Shown here piece by piece: positions 4,295 to 21,584 of a DNA stretch of 55,246 bases. Source of the stretch: a virus (lineage: Duplodnaviria > Caudoviricetes); the IMG/VR virus record IMGVR_UViG_3300032074_000004, positions 1-55,246 of that record. One strand, given 5' to 3'. The notes under the pieces were generated by a model. It was not told the DNA's origin and searched no databases. It saw nothing but the letters and a program-made list of their open reading frames with translations. The translations under genes and the position numbers were made by a program. Position 1 is the stretch's first letter. Each line of letters starts with the position of its first letter.

Positions 4295-5518
4295 ATGGGG
4301 GTAGAGCTATATCCGCATCAGTGGAAAGCATTGGGGGAGATGTCGAATGGATGCGTCCTACGAGGAGGAGTTGGCACAGGCAAATCAAGAACCGCTCTTG
4401 CTTATTTCTTTACGCAAGTGTGCCTGGGGTCAATTAGAGTTAACGGTCGCGGCGATTTCGGGGCCATGGAACGGCCACGTGACCTCTACATCATTTCGAC
4501 GGCCAAGAAGCGGGACAATGGAGAGTGGCTTGGTGAAGCAGCTGCTTTTGCTCTCTCTACCAGTCGGGATGCCTCTTTCCAAGGAGTTCAAGTCACGGTT
4601 GATAGCTGGAATCGAATCGGAGATTACGTCAATGTTAAGGACGCGTTCTTCATATTCGATGAGCAGAGGCTTGTTGGCTCGGGTGCTTGGGTTAAGGCGT
4701 TCCTCAAGATAGCGAAGCAGAACGAGTGGATTCTCCTCTCGGCGACGCCGGGCGACACGTGGATGGACTATATTCCAGTCTTCGTGGCCAACGGGTTCTA
4801 CAAGAACAAGACGGAGTTCGTCCGGCGTCACGTTGTCTTCAGCAACTACTCCAAGTTCCCCAAGATCGATCACTTCATCGAGACCAGTAGGCTCGAGCGC
4901 TTCCGTAAGCAGATCGTAGTGGATATGCCATACGTGCGGCACACAAAGCGGCACGTCCTGAATATCATGGTTGAACATGACAAGGAGCTCTTCGACAAGG
5001 TTACGAAAGAGCGATGGCATATCTACGAGGATCGTCCGCTTAAGGATGTTGGCGAGATGTTCGTCGTCATGCGTAAGTTGGTCAATGGGGATCCATCAAG
5101 GTTGGGAGCGGTGATGCAGCTGTGGGAGAAGCACAAGCGCCTCATCATATTCTACAACCACAATCACGAGCTAGACGCACTGCGAACTCTCGCGAACACA
5201 TGCAACGCACCGGTGGCCGAGTGGAACGGGCACAAGCATCAGGAGATTCCTGACAGTGACAAGTGGCTATATCTTGTCCAGTACACCGCAGGAGCTGAGG
5301 GATGGAACTGCACGGCTACGGACGCCATGGTGTTCTACTCGCTCAACTACTCATATCGTCTAACGGAACAGTCCAAGGGGAGGATCGACCGACTCAACAC
5401 TCCATATATTGATCTGTGGTACTACGTGCTCAGATCCAATTCAGCGATTGACAATGCCATCATCCGCTCGCTAGCCCAGAAGCGAGATTTCAACGAGAAG
5501 GAGTTGTTCAGTGAGTGA
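4295..5518 (+). CDS. SF2 (SNF2-like) DNA helicase
   Basis: LYPHQ Q-motif, Walker [34 protein letters not shown]. Confidence 0.88.
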
Positions 5519-7009: not shown

Positions 7010-7327
7010 ATGAAGGAAAGCGCCTTTCAGGCAGAGGTCATCAGAGACCTCAAGGATATCTTCCCAGGATGCATCGTCCTGAAGAACGATCCTAACTACC
7101 TGCAGGGCTTTCCTGATCTGCTGATTCTCTTCCGTAACCGATGGGCAGCTCTCGAAGTCAAGGCTAGCTACCTTGCCGAGCATCAGCCCAACCAGGACTA
7201 CTACGTCGACCTGCTCGACGGGATGAGTTTCGCAGCATTCATATTTCCCGAGAACAAGGATGCGATCTTCAATGAACTTCAACACACATTTCGAGCTCGC
7301 AGGCAAGCACGCCTTCCTCAGCGCTAG
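7010..7327 (+). CDS. VRR-NUC-family nuclease / resolvase
   Basis: MKESAFQ...GFPDL...ALEVK...QPNQ PD-(D/E)xK pattern. Confidence 0.85.
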   Translation: MKESAFQAEVIRDLKDIFPGCIVLKNDPNYLQGFPDLLILFRNRWAALEVKASYLAEHQPNQDYYVDLLDGMSFAAFIFPENKDAIFNELQHTFRARRQARLPQR

Positions 7328-7832
7328 CAAATATGCGTGGATCCGTTACGACCTCGACAAGCTCGAGTCTGTCTACCGGAACCACCAGGAAGCACAGCGC
7401 GGGACAGAGCTCCACGAATTCGCCGCCAACGCGATCCGCCTGGGCATCAAACTGCCTAGGACCAAGAAGACGATCAACGCCTTCGTGAACGACGCGCTGG
7501 GATATCGGATGGTGCCTGAGCAGATCCTCTTCTACTCGAGCAACGTCTTCGGCACCACGGATGCAATCTCGTTTCGTCAGAACATGCTGCGGATCCACGA
7601 TCTGAAGAACGGCGTCACCAAGGCCTCGTTCGATCAGTTGCTGATCTATACAGCGCTCTTCTGTTTGGAATATCGAGTCGACCCCTCAACGATCGACATC
7701 GAGCTTCGTCTCTACCAGGAGAACGAGGTTCGCGAACTGATCCCTGACCTTGACGACATCGTCGAGATCATGGCAAAGGTCGTTTCGTTCGACAAGCGAA
7801 TCGAAGAGCTGAAGCTGGCGGCCTTCGCGTGA
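7272..7832 (+). CDS. Cas4-like/DUF2800-type PD-(D/E)xK exonuclease
   Basis: HAFLSAS, GTELHE, EQ, FGTTD, IHDLK, QLLIY. Confidence 0.75.
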   Translation: MNFNTHFELAGKHAFLSASKYAWIRYDLDKLESVYRNHQEAQRGTELHEFAANAIRLGIKLPRTKKTINAFVNDALGYRMVPEQILFYSSNVFGTTDAISFRQNMLRIHDLKNGVTKASFDQLLIYTALFCLEYRVDPSTIDIELRLYQENEVRELIPDLDDIVEIMAKVVSFDKRIEELKLAAFA

Positions 7833-8077
7833 GCGGGAACCTGATCTGGTCCCTCGTTCTTAGCGCGATTGGCATCTACGGCATATTCCTCGCTGGCTCC
7901 AAGAACATCTGGGGTTGGGCCGTATCCTTTAGCGCTCAGGCGCTTTGGATTATCTTCGCTCTCGTGACTGGGCAGTATGGGTTCATCCTGTCTGCTCTGG
8001 TCTATGGGTGGGTCTACGGTCGCAACTATATTCGATGGCGCAACGAAAAGCGGAAGGAGGTCCGTGATGATGACTGA
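7829..8077 (+). CDS. Small PnuC-like membrane protein
   Basis: Three hydrophobic helices, WGW...Q.LW...YG. Confidence 0.6.
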   Translation: MSGNLIWSLVLSAIGIYGIFLAGSKNIWGWAVSFSAQALWIIFALVTGQYGFILSALVYGWVYGRNYIRWRNEKRKEVRDDD

Positions 8078-10736
8078 CGAAGCAGAAGAATTCCTCGCTC
8101 ACTACGGCATCCTCCGTAAGAGCGGAAGATATCCGTGGGGCTCTGGAGACAACCCCAACCAGCGCAACAAGGCGTTCCTGGATCATGTCGACTCTCTCAA
8201 GAAGAAGGGCCTGACTGAAGTCCAGATCGCTGAAGGACTCGGCATCAAGACCACCGAGCTCCGAGCCGCTAGGTCCATCGCCAAGAACGAGCTTCGGAAG
8301 GCTGATATTTCCCAGGCCCAGCGCCTGAAGGAAAAGGGCCTCTCGAATGTCGCCATTGGTGAGAGGATGCAGATCAACGAATCATCCGTTCGTGCTCTGC
8401 TCAATCCCAGCATGCAGGAGAAGGCCGATAACCTCGAGACCATCTCCAACTTCCTGAAGGATCAGGTAGGCGAGAAGGGATATTTGGACATCGGCTCTGG
8501 CACCGAGAACCACATTGGCATTAGCGCAACCAAGCTCAACACGGCAGTCGCCCGACTTGAGGAAGAAGGATATAAGCGCTACTACGTCAAGGTGGATCAG
8601 CTCGGCACCGGCAAGCAGACGACGATCAAGGTTCTGGCTCCTCCTGACACGCCATATTCTGATGTGTACAGGAACCGAGCCAGCATCAAGTCGGTTGCAG
8701 GATATAGCGAAGACGGTGGTCGCACCATCCTCGGCATCGAGCCGCCCAAGGCTATCGACTCCAAGAGGGTCGAAGTCAAATACGGGTCTGAAGGCGGTGC
8801 TCAGAAGGATGGTGTGATCGAGGTCCGTCGTGGCGTTGATGACGTCTCGCTCGGTGGCGCCAAATATGCGCAGGTCCGCGTGGCTGTCGATGGGACTCAC
8901 TATCTCAAGGGCATGGCCATGTATGCCGATGATCTGCCTCCTGGGGTCGATATTCGCTTCAACACCAACAAGGAGAACACGGGCAACAAGCTCGACGCTC
9001 TGAAGCCGTTGAAGACGGACAAGACCACTGGTCAGGTCGATCAGGACAATCCCTTCGGTGCTGTTATTCGCCAGCGTCACTACACTGACGCACATGGCAA
9101 GGATCAGCTCTCGCCCATGAACATCGTCAACGAGGAAGGCAACTGGCTCGCGTGGTCATCTAGCCTCTCTTCGCAGATGCTGTCTAAGCAGAGTCCTGCT
9201 CTTGCCAAGAAGCAGCTGGAACTCGCTTTCCAGTCCAAGCAGCGTGAGTTCGACGAGATCAACAGTCTCACGAACCCGACGATCAAGAAGAAGCTGCTCG
9301 AGTCGTTCGCCGATGACGCGGATTCCTCAGCAGTCCACCTTAAGGCAGCCGCACTGCCACGACAGGGCACGCATGTGATCCTCCCCATCAACACGATGAA
9401 GGAGAACGAGATCTACGCGCCCAACTATCGCAATGGCGAGAAGGTCGTGCTGGTTCGATATCCTCATGGTGGAACCTTCGAGATCCCGGAACTGACGGTC
9501 AACAACCGACAGGCCGACGCTAGGCGGATCCTAGGAAATGCGAAAGACGCGGTTGGCATCCATCACAAGGTTGCCGGTCGTCTGTCTGGTGCTGACTTCG
9601 ATGGCGACACCGTTCTGGTTATTCCCAACAACGACCAGAAGGTGAAGAACTCACCGCCTCTTGCCGGGCTCAAGGGTTTCGACCCTCAGGCGGCCTATCC
9701 CAAATATGATGGGATGAAGGTCATGTCGGCAAGAACCAAGCAGTTGAAGATGGGTGACGTCTCCAACCTCATCACAGATATGACTATTCAGGGTGCTCCT
9801 CAGTCCGAGATCGCTCGGGCCGTTAGGCACTCGATGGTTGTTATCGATGCGGAGAAGCACAAGCTGAACTGGAAGCAGTCAGCCATCGACAACGGGATCG
9901 CAGAGCTCAAGCAAAAATATCAGGGTAGCTCAAAGGCCGGTGCGTCGACGCTTATATCTAAGGCGTCTTCAAGCGTACGAGTTCCTGATCGCAAGCTTCG
10001 CTCAGCAGCAAACGGTGGACCGATCGACCCCGAAACGGGCCGTAAGGTGTATGAGAATATAGATTCCTCTTACACTAACAAGTCGGGCAAGGTTGTGGCC
10101 AAGTCCATATCCTCCACCAAGATGGCCGAGACTCATGACGCATATTCTCTCTCCTCAGGCACGCCTATGGAGACGGTATATGCTGACCATGCCAACAAGC
10201 TGAAGAGTCTCGCCAACACCGCACGCAAGAATATACTGTCCACGCCCAGCATCCCATATTCTCCTAGCGCAAAGAAAGCGTATGAACCCCAGGTGACGTC
10301 CCTCAAGGCTAAGCTAAATATAGCCTTGAAGAACCAGCCCCTTGAGAGGCAGGCCCAGCTACTGGCCAATGCCACCGTCACTGCCAAGAGGCAGGCCGAT
10401 CCAGAGATGGAAGCAGCGGATCTCAAGAAGATTAAGGGTCAGGCGCTCACTGCTGCACGCATTAGGACTGGGGCACAGAAGCAACGCATCGAGATCACAC
10501 CTGAAGAGTGGAATGCTATTCAGGCAGGCGCACTCAGCACCAACACGCTTAGCCAGATCCTGAACAACACTGATCTGGACAAGGTTAAGCAGTTGGCCAC
10601 TCCTCGAGAGTCTAAGGCGATGACCCCTGACAAGCTCGCGTTGGCTAAGGCCAGACTTGCAAGCGGCTACACCCAAGCAGAGATCGCTGATTCCTTGGGC
10701 GTGTCTACCACCACACTCAATGAAGCCCTATCGTGA
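8067..10736 (+). CDS. Putative single-subunit two-barrel (YonO/RdRP-like) RNA polymerase with HTH motifs and N-terminal FLAHYG tag
   Basis: LSGADFDGD at ~9582-9608 (DxDGD metal-binding motif) preceded by VLVRYPH; HTH-like segments near both termini; RBS AAGGAGG before 8067. Confidence 0.72.
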   Translation: MMTDEAEEFLAHYGILRKSGRYPWGSGDNPNQRNKAFLDHVDSLKKKGLTEVQIAEGLGIKTTELRAARSIAKNELRKADISQAQRLKEKGLSNVAIGERMQINESSVRALLNPSMQEKADNLETISNFLKDQVGEKGYLDIGSGTENHIGISATKLNTAVARLEEEGYKRYYVKVDQLGTGKQTTIKVLAPPDTPYSDVYRNRASIKSVAGYSEDGGRTILGIEPPKAIDSKRVEVKYGSEGGAQKDGVIEVRRGVDDVSLGGAKYAQVRVAVDGTHYLKGMAMYADDLPPGVDIRFNTNKENTGNKLDALKPLKTDKTTGQVDQDNPFGAVIRQRHYTDAHGKDQLSPMNIVNEEGNWLAWSSSLSSQMLSKQSPALAKKQLELAFQSKQREFDEINSLTNPTIKKKLLESFADDADSSAVHLKAAALPRQGTHVILPINTMKENEIYAPNYRNGEKVVLVRYPHGGTFEIPELTVNNRQADARRILGNAKDAVGIHHKVAGRLSGADFDGDTVLVIPNNDQKVKNSPPLAGLKGFDPQAAYPKYDGMKVMSARTKQLKMGDVSNLITDMTIQGAPQSEIARAVRHSMVVIDAEKHKLNWKQSAIDNGIAELKQKYQGSSKAGASTLISKASSSVRVPDRKLRSAANGGPIDPETGRKVYENIDSSYTNKSGKVVAKSISSTKMAETHDAYSLSSGTPMETVYADHANKLKSLANTARKNILSTPSIPYSPSAKKAYEPQVTSLKAKLNIALKNQPLERQAQLLANATVTAKRQADPEMEAADLKKIKGQALTAARIRTGAQKQRIEITPEEWNAIQAGALSTNTLSQILNNTDLDKVKQLATPRESKAMTPDKLALAKARLASGYTQAEIADSLGVSTTTLNEALS

Positions 10737-10749
10737 GGAGGGATTGACA

Positions 10750-11049
10750 ATGGCTACTGCAACACTGCACATGCTGACTACGGTCGACAATCCCTACAAC
10801 CCTTACACCCAATGGGATGAATGGTCAGAGTACGACACGAGTCATGGCTATCACACGAGCGCGCTGCTTGCTCGCATCGCTCACACATCTGACGAACTCT
10901 CTGATGCCGACCAAGACTTGGCATTGGAGCTAGCAATCGATGAGATCGTGCGTGTGAACGCGCTTGGACTGTATAGGAAGATTCCCATCGGCACTGTGGA
11001 GACTTCCGATCCTGCGTTGCTGCAGATGCAGTCATCGTCAAGCGTGTGA
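10750..11049 (+). CDS. Hypothetical phage protein
   Basis: RBS GAGGAGGG; MLTTVDNPYNPYTQWDEW. Confidence 0.75.
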   Translation: MATATLHMLTTVDNPYNPYTQWDEWSEYDTSHGYHTSALLARIAHTSDELSDADQDLALELAIDEIVRVNALGLYRKIPIGTVETSDPALLQMQSSSSV

Positions 11050-11566
11050 ATCGAGGCTGAAGAGGAGGCCGTAGTTGATTAAAATTCCATGGCAACCCCA
11101 TGGTCTCAGCTACGGTCCTCTTCAGTTCTCCCAATTGAGATCGCTTCCATCGCGAACTTCACAAGGCCTCTTTAGTTTTTGCCAAAACTGTAATAGTTAT
11201 GGTATAATACTTGGGGAATGTGAAGACCGGGGGGAGGGGTCTCGCAAAAGTACCCCCCTTGCGCATCGCCGCTGTCCCCAAAAATGCCCCGGGGGTCAAA
11301 AGAACTAGAAGTCCGCCGTTTGGAACGGGGTAGGAACCCTAGTAGAAGTAGTAGAAGGGCCGCCAAGTGCTGCCCAGAAGTACCCCAGAACTGTTTTCAC
11401 TTTCCCTCCATGCCGTGAGCGGTTCTGGTGGGTGCATCAAGGCCGCCAACAAACGGGTTTCATCAGGCCCATCTCCTTTCAAGCAGCGCACTACCCAGCG
11501 CTGAAGGTCTTGGTGCATCCTCCAGAGCTACTCACGTTTCCTCAGTCCGATAGAAAGGAGTGTCAC

Positions 11567-12451
11567 ATGGTACAGAGCAAGCTGACCAACCAGGTTCACA
11601 TCTCGAAGCAGAGCTCGTCTCGTCAAGGCGCGACGATCGACACCTTCCTGATCCACCACCAGGCGAGCACCAGCGACGACGCCACGATCAAGATGATGGT
11701 CGAGGCCACCCGAGAGGTTTCCGCCAACTACACCATCAGCAACGAGGGTCGCCTCACGCTGGTTGTCCCCGAGGAGCTTCGCGCTTGGACCTCTGGCTCG
11801 ACTGACGATGGCGGAAAGGGCGCTGCCTGGGATCGTCGTTCGATCACCGTCGAGATCGAGAACCAGACCGGAGACCCCGACTGGAAGATCAGCGACGCTG
11901 CCCTCAACAAGGCGGCCGAGCTTCTCAATGACCTCAAGAAGCGGTACAAGATCGCGCACGTCCTCGGGCACCGCGACCTCTGGGAGAAGTACCAGGCGTC
12001 CTACCCGACGTACTGCCCCGGCCCGCACACCGTCGCCGAGATCGTCAAGCGTGCTGCGGCTCACCCCGCTCCGGCTCCGGCGCCCGCTCCTAAGCCTGCG
12101 CCCAAGCCCGCTCCTAAGGGGACGGACCTGGTCAAGTCGGCCAAGGGTGACGGCTGGGAGTTCAACATCCCGAGCGCTGCTCTGACGGTTCGACTCCAGC
12201 GTGCTCTCGGTGCTCGGGGTCGCTACAAGGGTCCGGCGAACGGCAAGTTCACGGTCGACACCGCCAAGGGCGTTCAGCTCACCATTGAGCACGTCGGCTA
12301 CTCCGGTCCCATCGATGGCGACATCGAGAAGAATGGCTGCCACCTTATCCAGGTGTACGCCCAGAAGTTCGGTAGCTACATCGGGCCTGTCGACGACCGG
12401 CTCGGATCATTCAGTTGGACAGGCTTCTGCCTGGGATTGGAGCGCCCCTGA
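11567..12451 (+). CDS. Endolysin, N-acetylmuramoyl-L-alanine amidase (Amidase_2-like) with PA/PK linker and C-terminal cell-wall-binding region
   Basis: IHHQA, SANYTI, RAWTSG, SITVEIE, GHRD, TYCPG; RBS AAAGGAG. Confidence 0.9.
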   Translation: MVQSKLTNQVHISKQSSSRQGATIDTFLIHHQASTSDDATIKMMVEATREVSANYTISNEGRLTLVVPEELRAWTSGSTDDGGKGAAWDRRSITVEIENQTGDPDWKISDAALNKAAELLNDLKKRYKIAHVLGHRDLWEKYQASYPTYCPGPHTVAEIVKRAAAHPAPAPAPAPKPAPKPAPKGTDLVKSAKGDGWEFNIPSAALTVRLQRALGARGRYKGPANGKFTVDTAKGVQLTIEHVGYSGPIDGDIEKNGCHLIQVYAQKFGSYIGPVDDRLGSFSWTGFCLGLERP

Positions 12452-12543
12452 TGATGGGCCCCGAAGACAGCATCGACATCCTCGACGGGATCGTCGTTCC
12501 GCAGGATCCCATGGATCTCCTGCAGTGTGACTCCTGCCAGTAA
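12451..12543 (+). CDS. 30-aa microprotein ending in CDSCQ
   Basis: MMGPEDSIDILDGIVVPQDPMDLLQCDSCQ*; start coupled to endolysin stop (TGATG). Confidence 0.5.
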   Translation: MMGPEDSIDILDGIVVPQDPMDLLQCDSCQ

Positions 12544-12712
12544 AATGGTAGGTGGCTGGGTTGTTACTTCTGGGAGGAAGTAGGGGGCAACTCAGTAGCT
12601 AGAAAATCTGTCTGGGCCTTCCTAAAGGTTCTATGCCTTAACAGCCAGGGGTGGTTGGGGAAGGCCCAGACAGAAAGCTGACCAACAGACCCAAACAGTG
12701 GAGGTGAAATCT

Positions 12713-13051
12713 TTGGTCACGTCTCGTAGAAATTCTGAGTCGGATCGACCACGGAGACCACCCGCCACCACACCTGAGGCTCGAGAGAATCAGATGATTT
12801 CTCTGGCGGTCTCCCTAGCCGAGAGGCAGTTGTCGGAAGGCACGGCCTCGTCTCAGGTCATCACGCACTACCTCAAGCTCGCAACGACTCGAGAGCGCCT
12901 CGAGCAAGAGAAACTCGCCAGAGAAAACGAACTGCTTCGTGCTCGCACAGAGTCGATGGCTTCGGGCAAGCGAGTTGAAGAACTCTACGACCAGGCCATC
13001 AGCGCCATGCGCTCATACCAGGGTCAGGAGATCGACGAGTATGAGGATTAG
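12713..13051 (+). CDS. Putative terminase small subunit
   Basis: Helical/coiled-coil ~110 aa, directly upstream of HNH and head module; RBS GGAGGTG before TTG; assignment by position. Confidence 0.5.
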   Translation: MVTSRRNSESDRPRRPPATTPEARENQMISLAVSLAERQLSEGTASSQVITHYLKLATTRERLEQEKLARENELLRARTESMASGKRVEELYDQAISAMRSYQGQEIDEYED

Positions 13052-13451
13052 AACTTACAGGGAGCTTCGTCGGCTTCGCACCTTCGAAGAGCGATTCGAA
13101 TATCTGTCGCTCAGAGGACAAGTCGGCGAAGCTACCTTCGGCTTCGATCGGTACATGAACCAACAGTTCTACCGGTCAACTGAGTGGAAGCAGATCCGTC
13201 AGAAGGTTATTGCTCGGGACCTGGGGTTGGACCTCGGGGTTGAAGGACATGAGATCTATGACAAGATCATCATCCATCACATGAATCCGATGCGAGCCGA
13301 AGAGATCGAGCACGGCGACTCGGCGATCCTGGAACCAGATTTCCTGATCACCACGACGCATGCCACTCACAACGCAATTCACTACGGCGACAGCTCACTG
13401 CTTCCGCAGCCAATGGTCGATCGTAGACCCGGTGACACCAGACTCTGGTGA
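13041..13451 (+). CDS. Packaging-associated HNH endonuclease
   Basis: FYRSTEWKQIR..VIARD, IIHHMNP, THNAIH. Confidence 0.8.
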   Translation: MRIRTYRELRRLRTFEERFEYLSLRGQVGEATFGFDRYMNQQFYRSTEWKQIRQKVIARDLGLDLGVEGHEIYDKIIIHHMNPMRAEEIEHGDSAILEPDFLITTTHATHNAIHYGDSSLLPQPMVDRRPGDTRLW

Positions 13452-13472
13452 TGAAATTTAAGGAGGCGACAA

Positions 13473-13853
13473 TTGGCCGACACTAGCATTCTCGATAGCA
13501 CCAAGAAGGTGCTCGGGTTCGACTCGGATTACACCGCCTTCGATCTCGACATCATCATGCACATCAACGCTACCCTCTTCACGCTCCAGCAGCTTGGGGT
13601 TGGTCCCGACGATGGCTACCTGATCACCGGCAACACGGAGACCTGGGACCTGTTCCTTACGGATACCAAGCTTCTCTCCGCGGTCAAGAACTACGTCTAC
13701 CTCAAAGTTCGGATGCTCTTCGATCCTCCCGCGACTTCGTTCGCGATCGATGCGATCAACAAGCAGATCGCCGAACTCGAGTGGCGGATGAACGTCCAAA
13801 GCGAGAATAACAAGATGGTCGTTGTAATCACGGATCCGGAGCTCACGCCATGA
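13473..13853 (+). CDS. Head-tail connector/adaptor-like protein
   Basis: SILDSTKKVLG...FDLDIIMHIN...YVYLKVRMLFDPP; head-module context. Confidence 0.6.
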   Translation: MADTSILDSTKKVLGFDSDYTAFDLDIIMHINATLFTLQQLGVGPDDGYLITGNTETWDLFLTDTKLLSAVKNYVYLKVRMLFDPPATSFAIDAINKQIAELEWRMNVQSENNKMVVVITDPELTP

Positions 13854-14932
13854 CCGACGTCAACGATTTCCTTGCTCACTACGGGGTACTCGGCATGAAG
13901 TGGGGTCATCACAAAAGTGCAGACTCTGGTTCCGGTGCCGCGAATAAGCCCACTCTCGTTCTTACGAAGAAGTTCTCTTCCGGCGAATCGGTCTCCATCT
14001 ACCAAGAGCCAACTCCGCTGCTTGGCCGAGCGCTAGCCAAAGTCTTCCCGGGCCTAAAGGCTCAGCAGGCTAAGGTTGCCTCTTTCCACCTAAAGGACCA
14101 GGATGGGAAAAAGGTGGGAGACGCATCCTTCTTCCGCACGTCGAAAGAAGAGATGTATCTCGACTGGATCGGCATCAAGCCTCAGCATCGCGGTAAGGGC
14201 TATGCCAGCGCGGCACTGCAGGGGGTTGTGAAATACGCCCAGCATGAAGGCGTTAAGAAGTTGACCCTTGAGGTTCCGGGTAACGCTCCAGACGCCAGGC
14301 ATATCTATTCGAAGCTCGGCTTCAAGGACACTGGCGAGACCAGCGGTTCGAAAAACGACTACTGGGGCGGCCTAAGCAAGATGGAGTTGCGCGTCGACTC
14401 TATCAAGCATGCGGCAGAAGACGTTGCCTGGGAGCAAAAGTTCGCAGACGAGTTCGCTCAGTTCCTTATCGAGAACCTAGCTAACTTCCCAGTGGCCGAT
14501 TCAGAAATTTCTCATACAGACGAAGGAGGTGACACCATGACGGATGACAACGTCGAAGATTTCCTTGCTCACTACGGAGTCCTCGGCATGAAGTGGGGGC
14601 ATCGTAAGTCTCAGAGCACGGTCGATGCTCTTGGCGGTAAGGGCACCACGCACGTCAAGGAGATTTCTCTTGACGCAGCTAACGCTCATGCGGTGGCCAA
14701 GAAGATCAAGACGCATGGTCTGGACTCCCTTTCCAATAAGGAGCTCCAGGACTTCGTCAATCGGACCAACCTGGAGCAGCAGTATTCCAGGCTGAACCCG
14801 AAGAAGACACTCCCGGGTCAGAAGTTCGCAACGGACGTTCTGACTAACACGGGCAAGACCCTTGCCTCGCAATATGCCGCCAAGGCTGCGAAGCAGGGCA
14901 TTGAGGCCCTACTCAAGGGCGCAATGAAGTAG
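13850..14932 (+). CDS. FLAHYG-tagged protein with GNAT acetyltransferase domain, fused in frame to a second FLAHYG module
   Basis: FLAHYGVLGMKWG at 13868 and 14561; GNAT motif A YLDWIGIKPQHRGKGYAS and motif B ARHIYSKLGF. Confidence 0.8.
   Translation: MTDVNDFLAHYGVLGMKWGHHKSADSGSGAANKPTLVLTKKFSSGESVSIYQEPTPLLGRALAKVFPGLKAQQAKVASFHLKDQDGKKVGDASFFRTSKEEMYLDWIGIKPQHRGKGYASAALQGVVKYAQHEGVKKLTLEVPGNAPDARHIYSKLGFKDTGETSGSKNDYWGGLSKMELRVDSIKHAAEDVAWEQKFADEFAQFLIENLANFPVADSEISHTDEGGDTMTDDNVEDFLAHYGVLGMKWGHRKSQSTVDALGGKGTTHVKEISLDAANAHAVAKKIKTHGLDSLSNKELQDFVNRTNLEQQYSRLNPKKTLPGQKFATDVLTNTGKTLASQYAAKAAKQGIEALLKGAMK
14537..14932 (+). CDS. Internal in-frame gene: second FLAHYG-tagged small protein
   Basis: Strong RBS GAAGGAGGTG before ATG 14537; N-terminus mirrors the other tagged proteins. 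Confidence 0.65.
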   Translation: MTDDNVEDFLAHYGVLGMKWGHRKSQSTVDALGGKGTTHVKEISLDAANAHAVAKKIKTHGLDSLSNKELQDFVNRTNLEQQYSRLNPKKTLPGQKFATDVLTNTGKTLASQYAAKAAKQGIEALLKGAMK

Positions 14933-14949
14933 ATCAAGAGAGGACTAAA

Positions 14950-15960
14950 ATGTCGCTTCCCTGGGACGAGCCTGCACCCTCGTACACGGTCAGCCCGACT
15001 CCGACCGACACCACGTCCACCGACGCTGCCACGACCGATGCTTCGGCTCCGGCTGACACCACGTCGACGGACACGACCACGACCGAGGCATCCGCTCCGG
15101 CCGACACGACATCTTCGACGGACACCACGTCCACCGATGGCGTCGTCGTCACCTCGGACCAGGAGATTCCTCCTGCCGACAGCTACACGGTTACGCCGAA
15201 CGACTCCACTGAGGCGCCGAACGACTATGTCGTGACCCCGGCCACCCCTATCGAGACCGTCGCCGATGCTCCGGCTGAGACGACCACGACCGATGCTCCG
15301 GCTGAGGCCCCCGTCGAGGAGCCCGCGCCTGCTGACGCCCCGGTGGACACTGCGGTTGATGCTCCGGCTGACACCGCGCCTGTCGATGGCTCGGCCCCCA
15401 CGGAGACGACCGACACTCCTACGGAGGGGACTGACGCTTCCGCCGACGTTCCTGCCGAGCAGCCGGTTGTTTCCGAGGAGCCCGCCCCGACGGAGGTTTC
15501 TCCCGAGGTGACGCCGGAGGCCCCCGCTGAGGAGCCTGCTCCTGTCATCGGCGAGACGGCTCCCGAGGCCCCCATCGAGACGGCTCCTGAGGTCACCACG
15601 ACCGACGGCGCTCCCTACGAGGGCGGCAACGCGATTCCTGCTCCGGCTGACACCACGGTTGAGGCTCCGGCTGACACCACGGTTGAGGCTCCGGCTGACA
15701 CCACGGTTGAGGCTCCGGCTGACACCACGGTTGAGGCTCCGGCTGACGCTCCCGTCGAGGCGCCCGCGCCTGTCGAGATCGGCTCCAACGGCAGCACGTT
15801 CGAGGCGTCCTTCCAGGTGTCGGTGCTGGTCAGTGCTCAGAAGAGCACGGATGGCCAGTTCAGCATCAACATTCCGCAGGGTCAGACGGTTCCTGCTGAG
15901 ACCGCTGAGGCGCTTGCCCGCTACATCCTTTCGGGTGAGGGCGGTCGGCCTCTCGACTAA
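14950..15960 (+). CDS. Acidic Pro/Ala/Thr/Glu-rich low-complexity protein
   Basis: RBS AGAGAGGA; biased composition, short folded-looking C-terminus. Confidence 0.75.
   Translation: MSLPWDEPAPSYTVSPTPTDTTSTDAATTDASAPADTTSTDTTTTEASAPADTTSSTDTTSTDGVVVTSDQEIPPADSYTVTPNDSTEAPNDYVVTPATPIETVADAPAETTTTDAPAEAPVEEPAPADAPVDTAVDAPADTAPVDGSAPTETTDTPTEGTDASADVPAEQPVVSEEPAPTEVSPEVTPEAPAEEPAPVIGETAPEAPIETAPEVTTTDGAPYEGGNAIPAPADTTVEAPADTTVEAPADTTVEAPADTTVEAPADAPVEAPAPVEIGSNGSTFEASFQVSVLVSAQKSTDGQFSINIPQGQTVPAETAEALARYILSGEGGRPLD
15640..15747 (+). repeat. 24-bp tandem repeat x4.5 (APADTTVE)
   Basis: GCTCCGGCTGACACCACGGTTGAG four times exactly plus a 12-bp partial copy. Confidence 0.95.
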
Positions 15961-15973
15961 GTAGAAAGGAGGG

Positions 15974-17725
15974 TTGGCGATGAGCCTCTCAAACACGGCT
16001 ACACCTATTTACTATGGCCGCTTTCGTGAAGCAGTTATTCGCGGAGAGATTCCGGTGAATAGAGAAGTTGCACTTGAGATGAATCGCATCGACGAACTCA
16101 TCGCCAACCCTTCGTTCTACTACGACGACCAAGCCATCAACGGATTCATCAGGTTCTGTGAGAACGAGCTGACCCTGACTGATGGCAGTGATCTCCACAT
16201 GCTCGATTCCTTCAAGCTGTGGGCTGAGCAGATCTTTGGGTGGTACTACTTTGTCGAACGCAGTGTTTACGTTCCCGCTCCGGACAACCATGGCGGGCGT
16301 TATGTTCGCAAGATGGTCAAGAAGCGTCTAGTCACAAAGCAGTACCTGATCGTCGCTCGAGGAGCGGCTAAGTCGATGTACGCTGAGATGATTCAGGCCT
16401 ACTTCCTGAACGTGGACACGGCGACGACTCATCAGATCACGACGGCTCCTACGATGAAGCAGGCGGAAGAGGTCATGGCGCCCTTCCGAACAGCCATCAC
16501 TAGAGCCAGAGGTCCGCTCTTCGCCTTCCTTACCGAGGGTTCCCTACAGAACACCACCGGTTCGAAGGCCATGCGAGTTAAGCTCGCCTCCACCAAGAAG
16601 GGCATCGAGAACTTCCTTACGGGTTCGATGCTCGAGATTCGCCCCATGTCGATCAACAAGCTCCAGGGTCTCCGACCCAAGGTGTCAACGGTCGATGAGT
16701 GGTTGTCTGGTGACATCCGAGAGGACGTCGTCGGCGCCATCGAACAGGGCGCATCCAAACTGGACGACTATCTCATCGTGGCGATCAGCTCCGAGGGTAC
16801 CGTCCGTAACGGTAGTGGCGACACTATCAAAATGGAACTAGCTGACATTCTCAAGGGCGACTATCCTGCGCCACACGTTTCGATCTGGCACTACAAACTC
16901 GATGAGCTTGAAGAAGTCAACGATCCGAGCATGTGGCTAAAGGCGAATCCTAATCTTGGGAAGACCGTCACCTATGAAACTTACCAGCTTGACGTAGAAC
17001 GAGCCGAGAAAGCGCCTGCTTCTAGGAATGACATTCTCGCAAAGAGGTTCGGTATCCCCATGGAGGGCTACACGTACTTCTTCACTTACGAGGAGACCCT
17101 TCCGCACCGTCCCCAGAATTTCTGGAGCATGCCGTGTGCCATGGGTGCCGACCTTTCTCAGGGCGACGACTTCACCGCGTTCACATTCCTGTTCCCGCTG
17201 CCTAATGGCAAATTCGGGATCAAGACTCGAAGCTACATTTCGTCACTGACGCTGATGAAGCTTCCCGGTGCTATGCGAGCGAAGTATGACGAGTTCATCA
17301 ATGAGGGCAGCCTTCATGTTCTTGAAGGCACTGTCCTTGACATGATGGATGTTTACGACGATCTCGACAAATTTATCCAGGACCAGCAGTACGACGTCCG
17401 CGCGTTTGGGTTCGACCCTTATAACGCTAAGGAATTCGTCACTCGCTGGGAAGCGGAGAATGGTCCTTTCGGGATCGAGAAGGTTATTCAGGGAGCGAAG
17501 ACCGAGTCTGTCCCTCTGGGCGAACTCAAGCATCTGAGCGAAGAGCGCATGCTTATTTTCGACCAGGAGCTTATGACATTCGCCATGGGTAACTCGGTGA
17601 CCCTTGAGGACACCAATGGAAACCGAAAGCTCTTGAAGAAGCGACAGGATCAGAAGATCGATAATGTCGCAGCTCTGATGGATGCTTACGTCGCCTACAA
17701 GGCAAACAAGGATCAGTTCGATTAG
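15974..17725 (+). CDS. terL: Terminase large subunit
   Basis: Walker A ARGAAKS, Walker B STVDE, KANPNLG, nuclease GADLS, FDPYN, KIDNVAALMDA. Confidence 0.93.
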   Translation: MAMSLSNTATPIYYGRFREAVIRGEIPVNREVALEMNRIDELIANPSFYYDDQAINGFIRFCENELTLTDGSDLHMLDSFKLWAEQIFGWYYFVERSVYVPAPDNHGGRYVRKMVKKRLVTKQYLIVARGAAKSMYAEMIQAYFLNVDTATTHQITTAPTMKQAEEVMAPFRTAITRARGPLFAFLTEGSLQNTTGSKAMRVKLASTKKGIENFLTGSMLEIRPMSINKLQGLRPKVSTVDEWLSGDIREDVVGAIEQGASKLDDYLIVAISSEGTVRNGSGDTIKMELADILKGDYPAPHVSIWHYKLDELEEVNDPSMWLKANPNLGKTVTYETYQLDVERAEKAPASRNDILAKRFGIPMEGYTYFFTYEETLPHRPQNFWSMPCAMGADLSQGDDFTAFTFLFPLPNGKFGIKTRSYISSLTLMKLPGAMRAKYDEFINEGSLHVLEGTVLDMMDVYDDLDKFIQDQQYDVRAFGFDPYNAKEFVTRWEAENGPFGIEKVIQGAKTESVPLGELKHLSEERMLIFDQELMTFAMGNSVTLEDTNGNRKLLKKRQDQKIDNVAALMDAYVAYKANKDQFD

Positions 17726-17756
17726 AGCTGCTCCCGACTAAACACTAGGAGAAGAA

Positions 17757-18206
17757 ATGACTGACACGGCGAACGTGGATGACTTCCTCGCTCACCATGG
17801 CGTCCTCGGCATGAAGTGGGGGCACCACAAGGCGCAGACGTCCGGTGGCAGTGGCGGCTCTTCCGCTCCGGCCAAGAAGTCTCGGGCCGAGCTTCGCGCC
17901 CTGGACAAGGCCAGCGTGAAGAACGACAAGGCAGCTCGCAACGCTGAGATCGACGCTGCTCGTCAGCGCTACGACACCAGCGCTCGTTCGAACTACCTCA
18001 AGGCCAAGGCCCAGTACAAGGTCGACCGCCACCAGATCGGCAAGCGTGAGGCGCTGAAGGCCTTCAACAAGGTCAAGGACCAGAATATGGCCGACTACGA
18101 GAAGGCTAGCGAGCTCAAGAGCGGTAAGGAGACGGTCGTGGCGGTTCTCGCTACCATCGGCGTTACCGCGGCTTCCGTCGCCCTTCAGGCTGCGATCAAG
18201 CGCTAG
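17757..18206 (+). CDS. FLAHHG-tagged basic head-module protein
   Basis: FLAHHGVLGMKWG at 17784; lies between terL and portal. Confidence 0.8.
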   Translation: MTDTANVDDFLAHHGVLGMKWGHHKAQTSGGSGGSSAPAKKSRAELRALDKASVKNDKAARNAEIDAARQRYDTSARSNYLKAKAQYKVDRHQIGKREALKAFNKVKDQNMADYEKASELKSGKETVVAVLATIGVTAASVALQAAIKR

Positions 18207-18240
18207 GCTCATCCCCCGTAGAATAGAAAGGAGGTGAGAA

Positions 18241-19512
18241 ATGGGCTTTAGAGATCGTCTATCACACGCATGGGATGCCTTCACCAGCAGCGGTCAGCAG
18301 GATGGACTCCAGACAACTTCGAGTTTCGGAGTGAGTTACGGAAGTCGTCCTGATAGGATTCGTTTCCGAGGCGCCGACCGATCGATCATCACCTCCATCT
18401 ACAACCGCATCGGTATCGATGTCGCGGCTATCGATATTCAGCATGTTCGTTTGAATGAGGATGGGCAGTTCCTTGCCTCTATCAAGTCGGGTCTGAACAC
18501 CTGCCTTACTCAGGAAGCGAACATCGACCAGGCAGCTCGAGCATTCCGACAGGACATCGCCATGACGCTCTTTGAAAAGGGTGTCGCGGCGGTAGTTCCA
18601 GTGGAAACCACGCTTGATCCGTCACAGTCAACGGCCTATGACATCCGCTCGATGCGGGTCGGTGAGATCATGGCGTGGTTCCCCGGACACGTTCGGGTAA
18701 ATCTCTACAACGAGCGGACCGGCAAGAAGCAGGAAATTACCCTGCCGAAGGATCAGGTCGGCATCATCGAGAATCCTCTGTTCTCGGTAATGAACGAGCC
18801 GAACAGCACCCTCCAGCGACTTATTCGTAAGCTGAGTCTTCTCGACTCGGTCGACGAGCAAGCTAGCTCGGGGAAGCTCGACCTGATCATCCAGCTCCCT
18901 TACGTCATTAAGTCTGATGCTCGTAGAGATCAGGCCGAACAGCGACGCAAGGATGTCGAGATGCAGCTGAAGGGATCGCAGTACGGTATCGCCTATACTG
19001 ATGGTACCGAGAAGATCACTCAGCTGAATCGACCAATCGAGAACAACATGCTGAGCCAGGTCGAGTACCTGACGAAGATGCTGTATGGACAGCTCGGACT
19101 TACCGAGGAAGTCTTCAATGGAACGGCTAGCGAGGCAGTAATGCTGAACTACTACAACCGGACCATTGAGCCCATTCTCTCCGCCATTACGGAGGAGATG
19201 CGTAGGAAGTTCCTGACCAAGACGGCCAGGAGCCAGCTTCAGTCCATCGAGTTCTATCGCGACCCGTTCCGACTGGTCCCGATGGCGACTATCGCCGACA
19301 TCGCTGACAAGTTCACCCGTAACGAGATCATGAGCTCTAACGAGATCAGGTCCAAGATCGGTATGAAGCCGTCAAGCGACCCGAAGGCGAACCAGCTCGT
19401 CAACAGCAACATGCCACAGCCTAATGGCGGTCCGCCAGCAGCTGCACCCGCACCCGACCCCTCGTCTCCAGGCCAAGTTGGCCCGGCTGTCGATCCCGGG
19501 CCGGTGAACTAA
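18241..19512 (+). CDS. Portal protein
   Basis: Position, 423 aa, IYNRIGIDVA, NYYNRTIEP, IMSSNEIR. Confidence 0.88.
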   Translation: MGFRDRLSHAWDAFTSSGQQDGLQTTSSFGVSYGSRPDRIRFRGADRSIITSIYNRIGIDVAAIDIQHVRLNEDGQFLASIKSGLNTCLTQEANIDQAARAFRQDIAMTLFEKGVAAVVPVETTLDPSQSTAYDIRSMRVGEIMAWFPGHVRVNLYNERTGKKQEITLPKDQVGIIENPLFSVMNEPNSTLQRLIRKLSLLDSVDEQASSGKLDLIIQLPYVIKSDARRDQAEQRRKDVEMQLKGSQYGIAYTDGTEKITQLNRPIENNMLSQVEYLTKMLYGQLGLTEEVFNGTASEAVMLNYYNRTIEPILSAITEEMRRKFLTKTARSQLQSIEFYRDPFRLVPMATIADIADKFTRNEIMSSNEIRSKIGMKPSSDPKANQLVNSNMPQPNGGPPAAAPAPDPSSPGQVGPAVDPGPVN

Positions 19513-19538
19513 GAATCTAAGGAAGGAGGATCTTCAAA

Positions 19539-21584
19539 ATGGAACCTGATTTCAGCGGCTGGGCCACGAAGAACAACCTTCGTTGCTCGGATGGTCGGAC
19601 GATTATGCCCGACGCGTTCGCTCACCAGAACCAGATGAAGGTCCCGCTCGTCTGGCAGCATCAGCATAACCAGCCGGTCAACGTTCTCGGTCACGCCGTG
19701 CTCGAGAACCGCAAGGAGGGCGTGTACGCCTACGCGTACTTCAACGACTCTCCGGCCGCGGACAACGCCAAGACCCTCGTCAAGCACGGGGACATCACGT
19801 CGCTGTCCATTTATGCCAACAACCTCTCCCAGCAGGGCAAGAATGTCATGCACGGAGACATCAAGGAGGTCAGTCTCGTCCTCTCTGGTGCAAATCCTGG
19901 CGCGTTCATCGACAATGTCAACATTGCTCACGCAAGTGGCATGGAGACCCTGGTGGACGAGGCCATTATCTACACCGGGCTCGAACTCGAGCACGCTAAC
20001 ACTCAAGGAGATAACGTGGCTACCCCCACTCAGAGCGACAAGACCGTGCAGGATGTCTTTGACACCCTGTCGGAGGAGCAGAAGAACGTCGTCTACTACC
20101 TTATCGGCGAGGCCATGAAGGGCAACGGCGGTAACGGCGGTTCGGCGTCTCACAGCGACCTCGGCGAGGACGCGACGATCGAGGAGGTGTTCGACACCCT
20201 CTCTCACCAGCAGAAGGATGCCGTCTACATCATCCTCGGCGAGGCCCTCGACGGTCAGGAGTCCGGTGGCTCCATCAACCACAGCGACATCGACACGGAG
20301 TCGATCGCGAACGACATCATCCAGCACTTCAAGGAGGACGGCATGAGCCGCAACGTTTTCGACCAGAGCACCGGCGGCGGTTCCAGCGCCCGTCCGACGC
20401 TCACCCACTCGCAGCTCAAGGAGATCGTTGAGGACGCCCAGAAGATGGGTTCCTTCAAGGAGTCCTTCCTGGCGCACGCGGGCACCTACGGCATCGACGA
20501 CATCGACATCCTGTTCCCGGACGCCAAGGCGCTCTCGAACAGCCCGGAGATCATCGGTCGCCGCACCGAGTGGGTCGCCGCTGTCATCAACGGCACGAAG
20601 CACTCCCCGTTCTCGCGCATCAAGTCGACCGCTGCGGACCTGACCGCGGACGAGGCTCGTGCGAAGGGCTACGTCAAGGGCAACCTGAAGAAGGACGAGG
20701 TCATCAAGCTCCTGAAGCGAGTGACCACGCCGACCACGATCTACAAGAAGCAGAAGCTGGACCGCGATGACATCATCGACATCACGGACCTCGACGTCGT
20801 CGCCTGGCTGAAGGCGGAGATGCGGCTCATGCTGGACGAGGAGCTCGCTCGCGCGGTGCTCATCGGTGACGGTCGTGCTGCCGACGACGAGGACCACATC
20901 GACAGCGACCACATCCGCCCCATCGCGGACGACGACTCGATGTACGCCCACCAGGTCACGATCGGCAACGACCTCGACCCGGGCGCCACGGTGGAGGCCA
21001 TCCTCCGCAGCCGCACCTTCTACAAGGGCACGGGCACCCCGACCCTCTTCACCACGGACGGCGTCCTCACGGACCTCATCCTGCAGAAGGACAAGGTCGG
21101 CCGTCGTCTCTACGCGACCGAGGCTGAGCTGGCTGCGGCGCTGCGCGTCGACAAGATCGTGACCGTCGAGGTCATGGAGGACCGTCCGGACATCCTGGCG
21201 ATCCTCGTCAACCTGGCGGACTACACGCTGGGTGCGGACCAGGGCGGCAACGTCTCGATGTTCGACGACTTCGACATCGACTACAACCAGTACAAGTACC
21301 TGATCGAGACCCGCGTGTCTGGCGCGCTCACCAAGCCCAAGTCGGCTCTGGTGCTCAAGCAGACCGTCGGCACCTTCGTGACCCCGGGTACCCCGTCGTA
21401 CAACGGCACGACTCACGTCATCTCGATCCCGGCGACCGCTGGTGTGGTCTACTCGATCGACGGCAACGATGTCTCTGGCGATGTCACCATCTCCGAGACC
21501 ACCGAGGTCGACGCGCGTCCGGCCGCTGGTTACACCTTCCCGGCGAACACGGTCACCAACTGGACCTACGTCTACACGGCGTAG
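19539..21584 (+). CDS. Prohead protease-scaffold-major capsid fusion protein (HK97-like) with C-terminal Ig-like extension
   Basis: DFSGWAT, VPLVWQH, LSIYA, IKEVSLV..GANPGA (HK97-type protease); acidic linker; LDEELARAVLIGDG capsid core. Confidence 0.9.
   Translation: MEPDFSGWATKNNLRCSDGRTIMPDAFAHQNQMKVPLVWQHQHNQPVNVLGHAVLENRKEGVYAYAYFNDSPAADNAKTLVKHGDITSLSIYANNLSQQGKNVMHGDIKEVSLVLSGANPGAFIDNVNIAHASGMETLVDEAIIYTGLELEHANTQGDNVATPTQSDKTVQDVFDTLSEEQKNVVYYLIGEAMKGNGGNGGSASHSDLGEDATIEEVFDTLSHQQKDAVYIILGEALDGQESGGSINHSDIDTESIANDIIQHFKEDGMSRNVFDQSTGGGSSARPTLTHSQLKEIVEDAQKMGSFKESFLAHAGTYGIDDIDILFPDAKALSNSPEIIGRRTEWVAAVINGTKHSPFSRIKSTAADLTADEARAKGYVKGNLKKDEVIKLLKRVTTPTTIYKKQKLDRDDIIDITDLDVVAWLKAEMRLMLDEELARAVLIGDGRAADDEDHIDSDHIRPIADDDSMYAHQVTIGNDLDPGATVEAILRSRTFYKGTGTPTLFTTDGVLTDLILQKDKVGRRLYATEAELAAALRVDKIVTVEVMEDRPDILAILVNLADYTLGADQGGNVSMFDDFDIDYNQYKYLIETRVSGALTKPKSALVLKQTVGTFVTPGTPSYNGTTHVISIPATAGVVYSIDGNDVSGDVTISETTEVDARPAAGYTFPANTVTNWTYVYTA

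Follow-up and report, generated by a model that had tools for sequence, protein, structure and literature searches.

DUF7211, a short motif on otherwise unrelated phage head-module proteins, as a candidate head-targeting and processing tag

Results

A recurring motif in the head module

We analysed a 55,246-bp IMG/VR virus record (the window), in which a short motif containing the residues FLAH, here called the tag, recurs in otherwise unrelated proteins of the head module and, in part, in an RNA polymerase (RNAP). The window belongs to the lineage of Lactococcus phage 1706, Arthrobacter phage Mudcat and Rhodococcus phage Pepy6. Its replication genes are followed by the RNAP gene (8067-10736), a conserved small open reading frame (ORF), an amidase endolysin, an HNH gene and a connector gene (13473-13853). 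Then come ORF 13850-14932, a low-complexity ORF, the terminase gene TerL (15974-17725) and ORF 17757-18206, and finally the portal gene (18241-19512), a protease-capsid fusion (19539-21584) and the tail genes. This gene order is shared by Arthrobacter phage Circum.

Five copies of FLAH are present in the six-frame translation, where about 0.5 copies are expected from residue frequencies; 200 triplet shuffles gave a mean of 0.6 and a maximum of 3. The sites, at 8091, 13868, 14561, 17784 and 20466, had been listed in an earlier note on this DNA, and all five proved to be on the plus strand and in real ORFs. FLAH is found at residue 9 of RNAP (counted from ATG 8067), residue 7 of ORF 13850-14932 and residue 10 of ORF 17757-18206. 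The note had placed each tag within about ten residues of a start, which holds for 8091, 13868 and 17784; the copy at 14561 lies inside the same ORF as that at 13868, but 9 residues past an internal ATG. A search for L.H[YHF] within the first 20 residues of 861 plus-strand start candidates returned the four tags and two unrelated places.

The motif spans about 20-25 residues: an acidic leader, then hydrophobic-L-x-H-[Y/H/F]-G-V-x-G-M-K-W-G, then basic residues. The L and the H are each at least 90% conserved, and the residue that follows is aromatic. Three of the window copies are full matches to Pfam DUF7211 (PF23847), an already catalogued family that Pfam lists as being of unknown function. 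Against its gathering cut-off of 27 bits, a whole-protein score, ORF 13850-14932 scores 91.3 bits in two stretches and ORF 17757-18206 scores 46.4 bits, both above it. The proposal of one shared tag stands for these three copies, while RNAP carries the first half only (17.6 bits). ORF 17757-18206 (plus strand) encodes a small tagged protein of 149 amino acids (aa) between terminase and portal, with DUF7211 at residues 6-27, the tag at 17772-17837 and a hydrophobic C-terminal helix.

An AlphaFold2 (AF2) model predicts the tag to be disordered (pLDDT about 50), as would be expected of a docking or processing motif. A DNA-level origin of the motif, as a recombination boundary, was rejected: synonymous positions vary between the tag copies, and Lactococcus phage 1706 retains the motif despite its low GC content. 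Our literature search returned no mention of 'DUF7211', nor of 'GMKWG' in a phage context. The motif was not found in the accessible parts of the literature on capsid-protease fusions, and the available text of an Arthrobacter phage paper contains neither mass spectrometry nor the motif (PMC5513430).

The tag family in relatives

A profile of the three window tags matched 896 proteins among 1,817 word-sharing candidates. A profile of 104 tags, run against 1.84 billion proteins, matched 51,868 representatives at E<=1e-3 and 4,425 at E<=1e-10. Its ranking favours multi-copy proteins, and those at the top carry 2-5 tags spaced about 150-230 aa apart, the first usually N-terminal.

Gene context was taken from the best 80 of 376 tag-bearing IMG/VR loci, a sample biased to close relatives, in which homologues of the window genes were found for TerL in 76, portal in 67, protease in 54 and RNAP in 27. 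A hidden Markov model search of these loci and the window, the cataloguing that the earlier note had proposed, located 261 tags, all on the head-gene strand. They lie on 228 tagged ORFs, which form 177 clusters at 60% identity, and in 190 of the 228 the first tag is at most 20 residues from the ORF start. The note's description of a tag on otherwise unrelated proteins is thus borne out by these hypervariable head-module ORFs and, in half form, by all the RNAPs of the lineage.

Tagged ORFs occupy two main slots, and 200 of the 228 lie between connector, TerL and portal. In the window, the first slot is bordered on its left by the head-tail connector (13473-13853, plus strand; Pfam Phage_connect_2, E 1.4e-38) and is divided from the second by the terminase large subunit (15974-17725, plus strand; Pfam TerL_nuclease, E 4.5e-38). 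The slot between TerL and portal holds 122 tagged ORFs (0-7 per locus, 66 loci) and that between connector and TerL holds 78 (at least one in 62 of 68 loci). Eight others lie upstream of the connector, one between portal and capsid genes and two downstream of the capsid gene; 17 were left unplaced in cut loci. ReqiPepy6 has seven tagged genes in a row, gp015-gp021. In five near-complete relatives, matches above the cut-off are confined to the head module, and the other, sub-threshold ones are the N-termini of 909-aa and 940-aa frames near the right end, which are RNAPs by length and position.

A 22-residue tag searched with tblastn (E<=1) against 50,697 phage records matched 630 places in 178 of them: Arthrobacter 95, Gordonia 55, Streptomyces 11, Curtobacterium 4, Rhodococcus 4, Bacteriophage sp. 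4, Lactococcus 3, Microbacterium 1 and Caudovirus 1. RNAP homologues are present in 250 phage records and the protease-capsid fusion in 244, with nearly equal name tallies: Arthrobacter 95, Gordonia 55, Streptomyces 54, Lactococcus 13, Curtobacterium 7, Rhodococcus 4, Microbacterium 4 and Faecalibacterium 2. Judged from these name tallies, in which unclassified rows are unassignable, the tag matches occur only in name groups that also have the RNAP and the fusion. These phages are the supercluster already described with the HTH/RNAP-like protein as its signature, and the motif is not mentioned in the accessible part of that preprint (bioRxiv 10.1101/842583).

Two variants were seen in relatives. 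In one tag subfamily (loci L052, L058, L071, L072, L074 and others) the tag continues into a longer conserved block, …GMKWGVRRYQNKDGSLT.AG…, which suggests that, in one lineage branch, the tag is followed by a further conserved element. In some relatives a coiled-coil, scaffold-like gene lies between portal and capsid fusion and has the N-terminus acidic-F-L-x-H-Y followed by a conserved YYDP..A.EYY.RTRELKGR block (Circum gp11, at 7441-8052 of locus L005, and loci L028, L036, L060, L063 and L082). This half-tag gene is not in the window, where the portal and capsid genes abut.

Domains carried by the tagged proteins

The 150 longest cluster representatives were scanned with Pfam. DUF7211 was matched in all 150, and another enzyme- or toxin-like domain in 14. 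The additional Pfam matches were Gln_amidase (papain-fold toxin 1) in six, GNAT in three, 2'-5' RNA ligase/2H in two, an ADP-ribosyltransferase exoenzyme (ADPrib_exo_Tox) and an MT0933 antitoxin-like domain in one each, and three weak single matches. A second scan, of 47 long multi-tag proteins, found 2H in ten, GNAT in four, Gln_amidase in two and CW_7 in one. The recognisable domains belong to types known from injected phage effectors, in line with the note's interpretation. PADLOC gave weak matches only (E above 1e-4). The tagged proteins are basic (Lys+Arg 18%, Asp+Glu 11%), with an acidic leader of 8 residues. Two are labelled 'structural protein' in their records: Lactococcus phage 1706 gp07, which has two tags and was so named by its depositors on a basis that we could not confirm, and Pepy6 gp019, labelled by similarity.

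The tagged GNAT protein and its anchor module

In the window the first slot opens with ORF 13850-14932 (plus strand), one open frame of 360 aa with the layout tag, GNAT acetyltransferase, tag, helical anchor module. The FLAH sites at 13868 and 14561 share one frame that is stop-free between them; the tags occupy 13850-13921 and 14546-14617, and Acetyltransf_1 matches residues 78-158 (E 7.9e-13). The internal ATG at 14537 is preceded, 6 nt upstream, by the Shine-Dalgarno sequence GAAGGAGGTG (site 14523-14539), and the second tag comes 9 residues after it. As this ATG has its own strong ribosome-binding site, a nested in-frame product consisting of the anchor module alone (14537-14932, plus strand) is likely to be made beside the full GNAT fusion. 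Long and short in-frame nested forms are known from lambda C/Nu3.

The anchor module (residues 232-360) is made up of the tag, a basic and Ser-rich linker, a helix with the conserved motif S..EL.....R..LE..Y and a C-terminal amphipathic helix. It forms the extreme C-terminus of most multi-tag proteins, and the helix motif occurs in 25 of the 177 tagged clusters. The AF2 model of the module has a helical hairpin at 45-86 (helices 45-60 and 67-86, pLDDT 80-89) and a long helix at 93-130. Compared with BFVD, it retrieved sequence relatives such as Pepy6 gp013 and no annotated fold; the ESM Atlas returned viral DUF7211 clusters only and no annotated structural neighbour. ReqiPepy6 gp013 itself (10681-12276, in the connector-TerL slot) has an untagged N-terminal 2H phosphoesterase with two H-x-T motifs, one internal tag and the anchor module, so an enzyme can also precede a protein's only tag.

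A half-tag on the RNA polymerase

The gene at 8067-10736 (plus strand) encodes a single-subunit RNAP homologue of 889 aa with HTH ends, matched by phrog_4291 with E=0 over residues 2-889. Its translation contains GADFDGD, a DxDGD loop, which by sequence makes it a YonO/crAss-like DxDGD polymerase, a class treated in the accessible part of the supercluster preprint (bioRxiv 10.1101/842583). A phmmer search of the protein against PDB sequences gave nothing relevant.

A Shine-Dalgarno sequence precedes ATG 8067, and the N-terminus that follows carries the half-tag: DUF7211 matches at 8073-8111 with profile positions 1-13 only, below the Pfam cut-off. When the tags were aligned with RNAP N-termini, hhalign gave a probability of 95.3% and E 2.2e-8 over 15 columns, at equal distance from the start. 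Each of the 23 complete RNAP N-termini in the window and the loci shows [L/I]-x-H-[Y/..]-G and then a conserved R-x-S-G-R-Y-P-W-G-S-G block, a variant that no other place in the loci was found to carry. Relatives with cos ends have the RNAP gene in final position, on the right, so that joining the ends brings it next to the late genes, as in the window. The window is a circular permutation with respect to those relatives, with replication genes that span its ends and lead into RNAP.

The protease-capsid fusion and candidate processing sites

The fusion begins with a prohead serine protease domain (19539-19925, plus strand; Pfam Peptidase_S78, 30.9 bits against a cut-off of 21), whose residues 1-129 are modelled by AF2 with pLDDT above 90 from a 46-sequence alignment. 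H41, S90 and E110 are invariant in the 46 fusions, and the catalytic residues are probably among them. The domain is followed by a linker or scaffold-like region (19923-20480, plus strand), in which a motif scan found six hydrophobic-x-His-small sites: IAHA 129, LEHA 150, ASHS 203, INHS 246, LTHS 288 and LAHA 311. The middle four had been pointed out in the earlier note; IAHA is additional. LAHA 311 immediately precedes the conserved capsid N-terminus, in keeping with the note's view that FLAHAG lies near the start of the capsid fold, and [LIVMFA].H[AGSD] is absent from the capsid domain. H131 is invariant among the fusions, and H152 and L288/H290 are at least 90% conserved. AF2 predicts disorder at 130-168 and 241-283 and repeated helices, with the FLAHA site within a helix. 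The remainder (20481-21584, plus strand) is an HK97-fold major capsid domain by Foldseek against PDB, with matches to the Muddy, Ziko and HK97 capsids and to encapsulins (E about 1e-10 to 1e-11); Pfam Phage_capsid scores 21.1 bits on the fusion, under its cut-off of 24.2.

Sites of this kind are over-represented in the fusions and in the portals. L.H[AGSD] occurs 178 times in the 46 fusions, against 19 expected from shuffles, and almost all of these sites lie ahead of the LFPD motif, in the half made up of protease and linker. In 57 distinct portals it occurs 32 times against 5.6 expected, and in the controls once against 10 (TerL) and twice against 7.5 (RNAP). As the sequences are related, the shuffles overstate their independence. 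In each of the 47 loci with a junction as well as a tag, hydrophobic-L/I-x-H-[A/G/D] stands directly before the conserved capsid N-terminal block. The L-x-H of the tag is thus shared with an over-represented site of the protease-capsid fusion, the linker/capsid junction included, much as the note had suggested. The window portal has L-S-H-A at residues 7-10 of ORF 18241-19512 (18259-18270, plus strand), a candidate N-terminal processing site, and 31 of the 57 distinct portals have R-L-x-H-A-W within their first 8-48 residues, possibly a trimming site of the capsid-linker kind.

Internal tags are preceded by similar sites. H[SADGT] is found 3-16 residues upstream of 60 of 120 distinct internal tags, compared with 210 of 2,400 control windows (8.75%). 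Of these 60 sites, 58 have L, V, I, M, A or F at P3, while Ser occupies P1' in 35 and Asp in 12. Counted from this His to the Leu of the tag, the spacing peaks at 8-11, which is also the length of the leader from Met to Leu in N-terminal tags. We infer a protease specificity of hydrophobic-x-His with a small residue after the His, and such cleavage would release polyprotein modules with their tags intact. This specificity is formally like the consensus patterns of herpesvirus assemblin and T4 gp21. The earlier note had placed the cut within the tag, as FLAH|xG. This now appears doubtful, as the tag has Tyr, His or Phe after the His where the putative sites have a small residue; internal tags instead have a separate hydrophobic-x-His-Ser/Asp site 8-11 residues upstream, and a cut there would leave the tag on its module.

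Docking of the tag (40 aa, with the 104-tag alignment) to the full fusion gave ipSAE 0.00 in both runs, which were made without controls, and speaks neither for nor against binding.

Discussion

A possible head-targeting tag

The reading we favour, and hold with about as much belief as doubt, is that DUF7211 is a head-targeting and processing tag for ejected cargo, comparable to the capsid targeting sequence (CTS) of phage T4. It is based on the anatomy of the motif, its distribution and analogy. The tag would be a short linear, partner-dependent signal that marks proteins for the procapsid and ties them to the capsid-fused S78 protease. Tagged proteins would be made late in infection, alongside the head proteins, and docked by the tag inside the assembling prohead; the docking partner could be the capsid fusion, through its protease or linker part, or else the anchor module, co-assembled with the short nested product. 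The protease would then cut after His at hydrophobic-x-His|small sites, freeing itself, fragmenting the linker, releasing the mature capsid N-terminus, trimming the portal and splitting tagged polyproteins so that each module starts with its own tag. The basic cargo would remain with the DNA and be ejected into the next host. Such cargo would comprise not only GNAT, deamidase, 2H phosphoesterase and ADP-ribosyltransferase domains but also many domains of unknown kind, proteins with a single hydrophobic helix and, probably, the RNAP.

A narrower proposal, which we regard as rather unlikely but worth stating, is that DUF7211 is a portable loading tag that acts as a pseudo-substrate of the protease. 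Its L-x-H would dock and the aromatic P1' residue would spare it from cleavage, so that an interchangeable arsenal, and RNAP by way of a specialised half-tag, would be loaded and injected.

Several observations weigh against a targeting and processing tag for ejected cargo. The only indication of tagged proteins in virions is one depositor annotation, and packaging of RNAP is suggested by the half-tag only. Beyond HYG the RNAP motif departs from the tag, and its role could lie in the polymerase itself. Cleavage after His is deduced from motif statistics on related, non-independent sequences, and the tag differs from the putative sites in having an aromatic rather than a small residue after the His. 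Outside their tags, the tagged proteins are not enriched in L.H[AGSD] (17 against 11, a number reached in 11 of 200 shuffles). The match between tag and junction profiles is weak (probability 35.6%, 10 columns), and tag and capsid junction do not covary across the 47 loci (P4 0.124 and P2 0.212, against shuffle means of 0.122 and 0.206). Because of this we dropped the idea that full FLAH identity is meaningful. Of the note's tag in the capsid precursor, the L-x-H is general, being common to tag and junction, but the F and A are specific to the window. No domain could be recognised in about 135 of the 150 cargo representatives, and so the interchangeable enzymes that the note foresaw, of which GNAT, deamidase, 2H and ADP-ribosyltransferase domains were indeed found, fit a minority only. 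Finally, 48 of the 177 clusters have a membrane-like helix (one hydrophobic segment of at least 19 residues), which would fit a function in the membrane of the infected cell as well.

Other explanations

It is hardly credible that the likeness among tag, RNAP and capsid site is chance or low complexity. For the tags and RNAP this is already refuted by the tenfold excess of FLAH over the 0.5 copies expected, by the 51,868 representative proteins with DUF7211, and by the half-tag found in 23 of 23 RNAPs with its hhalign E of 2.2e-8. The capsid site, whose match consists of L-x-H plus the window-specific F and A with a weak profile match, is where chance has most to offer, although every one of the 47 fusions listed has the junction His. 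An explanation we consider unlikely is that the tagged proteins are a structural core or scaffold of the often prolate prohead, with the tag as an assembly or processing signal, and that they are degraded or expelled at maturation with nothing delivered. In its favour, the window lacks a separate scaffolding gene, the small tagged proteins are helical like the anchor module, the scaffold-like gene of relatives bears the half-tag, and 62 of 68 loci have one or more tagged ORFs in the connector-TerL slot, in keeping with a core gene. A scaffold would hardly vary so much, with 0-7 tagged ORFs per slot and 177 clusters among 228 ORFs; nor would it need fusions to GNAT, ADP-ribosyltransferase, deamidase and 2H domains, and the RNAP half-tag would be left unexplained.

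Processing and location bear on two further explanations. The tag might serve only to direct polyprotein or maturation processing by the phage protease, or to aid folding or stability, with no targeting and with products that act in the infected cell. The hydrophobic-x-His-Ser/Asp site before half of the internal tags in polyproteins is compatible with this, as is the L-x-H common to tag and putative sites. We doubt it, since most tagged ORFs have a single N-terminal tag with only an 8-residue leader to remove, and the protease is fused to the capsid protein. HK97-type prohead proteases act within the prohead, and if the fused protease does so its substrate must be inside as well. More improbable still is that the tagged proteins act at the host membrane or envelope, in exclusion, lysis timing or envelope remodelling, with the tag as a cytoplasmic N-terminal handle unrelated to the capsid. 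The hydrophobic segment in 48 of 177 clusters usually follows tag and linker, in some relatives the tagged proteins are annotated 'membrane protein', one cargo has the CW_7 cell-wall-binding repeat and the endolysin lies within the same gene block. Against this, 129 of the 177 clusters lack such a segment, RNAP and the GNAT protein are cytoplasmic enzymes, and the tagged genes sit among terminase, portal and capsid genes, away from lysis genes. Membrane-inserting helices are, besides, typical of ejection proteins.

Comparison with known systems

The closest known system is the CTS of the T4 internal proteins (IPI-III and Alt, with the protease gp21). T4 internal proteins are basic, as are the tagged proteins here; Alt is an ADP-ribosyltransferase, a domain also found among the tagged cargo. 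The T4 CTS ends in a protease consensus site, and the T4 protease has Glu at P1 where the putative P1 here is His. The CTS is conserved on otherwise diverse internal defence proteins and directs this hypervariable cargo to the prohead core, according to the accessible part of the source (PMC3012670). The likeness, known here from sequence, is one of arrangement: in both systems a short conserved N-terminal sequence stands on otherwise unrelated head-module proteins. The tag differs in being longer (about 20-25 residues), Gly- and aromatic-rich, repeated in polyproteins and probably kept after processing, and in its association with an S78 domain fused to the HK97-fold capsid protein of siphoviruses.

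The MuF polymorphic toxins of temperate phages, which Jamet et al. are said to have described in 2017, reportedly combine a head-associated module with interchangeable toxin or enzyme domains, such as ADP-ribosyltransferases and deamidases, beside the portal gene. The likeness is again a conserved head-associated part joined to interchangeable domains near the portal gene. Pfam scans of 10 window proteins, 150 tagged ORFs and 47 multi-tag proteins returned no Phage_Mu_F, and the constant part here is a 25-residue motif (with a C-terminal helical anchor in one gene) in arrays of up to seven genes. Virion-packaged RNAPs are known in N4 (vRNAP) and in crAss-like phages (gp66). Similarly, the non-T7-type RNAP of this lineage could travel in the particle and be injected to start transcription; it is much smaller (889 aa), and its packaging is suggested only by the half-tag. 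We know of no packaging signal for the N4 or crAss polymerases. Encapsulins, in which short terminal peptides, usually C-terminal, load diverse enzymes into an HK97-fold shell without protease or DNA, are among the structural neighbours of the window capsid domain, and binding of the tag to the shell is a putative parallel.

What the reading would imply

If DUF7211 is a head-targeting tag, it would be a second, independent capsid targeting system besides that of T4, in HK97-type siphoviruses of Actinobacteria and of gut and dairy Firmicutes. A Pfam DUF present on 51,868 representative proteins would acquire a function, thousands of 'hypothetical' head-module genes would become candidates for injected effectors or counter-defence proteins, and a simple tag for putting proteins into phage heads would become available. 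The reading would also imply an unusual P1-His specificity for an S78 prohead protease. In a lineage whose signature gene is an RNAP, by the accessible part of the preprint (bioRxiv 10.1101/842583), it would predict a virion RNAP. Were the pseudo-substrate proposal true, a virion-borne RNAP would free early transcription from host promoters and could help to explain how the lineage spans Actinobacteria and Firmicutes. Many members of the lineage are cultured SEA-PHAGES isolates.

Other features of the window

The window has no tRNA genes. Its replication genes include DNA polymerase/primase (49111-52902), helicase (4295-5518) and exonuclease (7260-7832). Between the tagged GNAT gene and TerL lies a 336-aa ORF (14950-15960, plus strand) that is very acidic and rich in Thr, Ala, Pro, Glu and Asp. 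It contains a perfect tandem repeat of 24 bp x 4.5 at 15640-15747 and a repeat of 48 bp x 2.9 at 14999-15139, and has no Pfam or PHROG match and no tag; Circum lacks any gene at the corresponding position. The Amidase_2 endolysin (11564-12451, plus strand), with a linker of Pro-Ala/Pro-Lys repeats, is encoded upstream of the packaging genes, an arrangement noted for clusters AM and AU in the accessible part of the Arthrobacter phage paper (PMC5513430).

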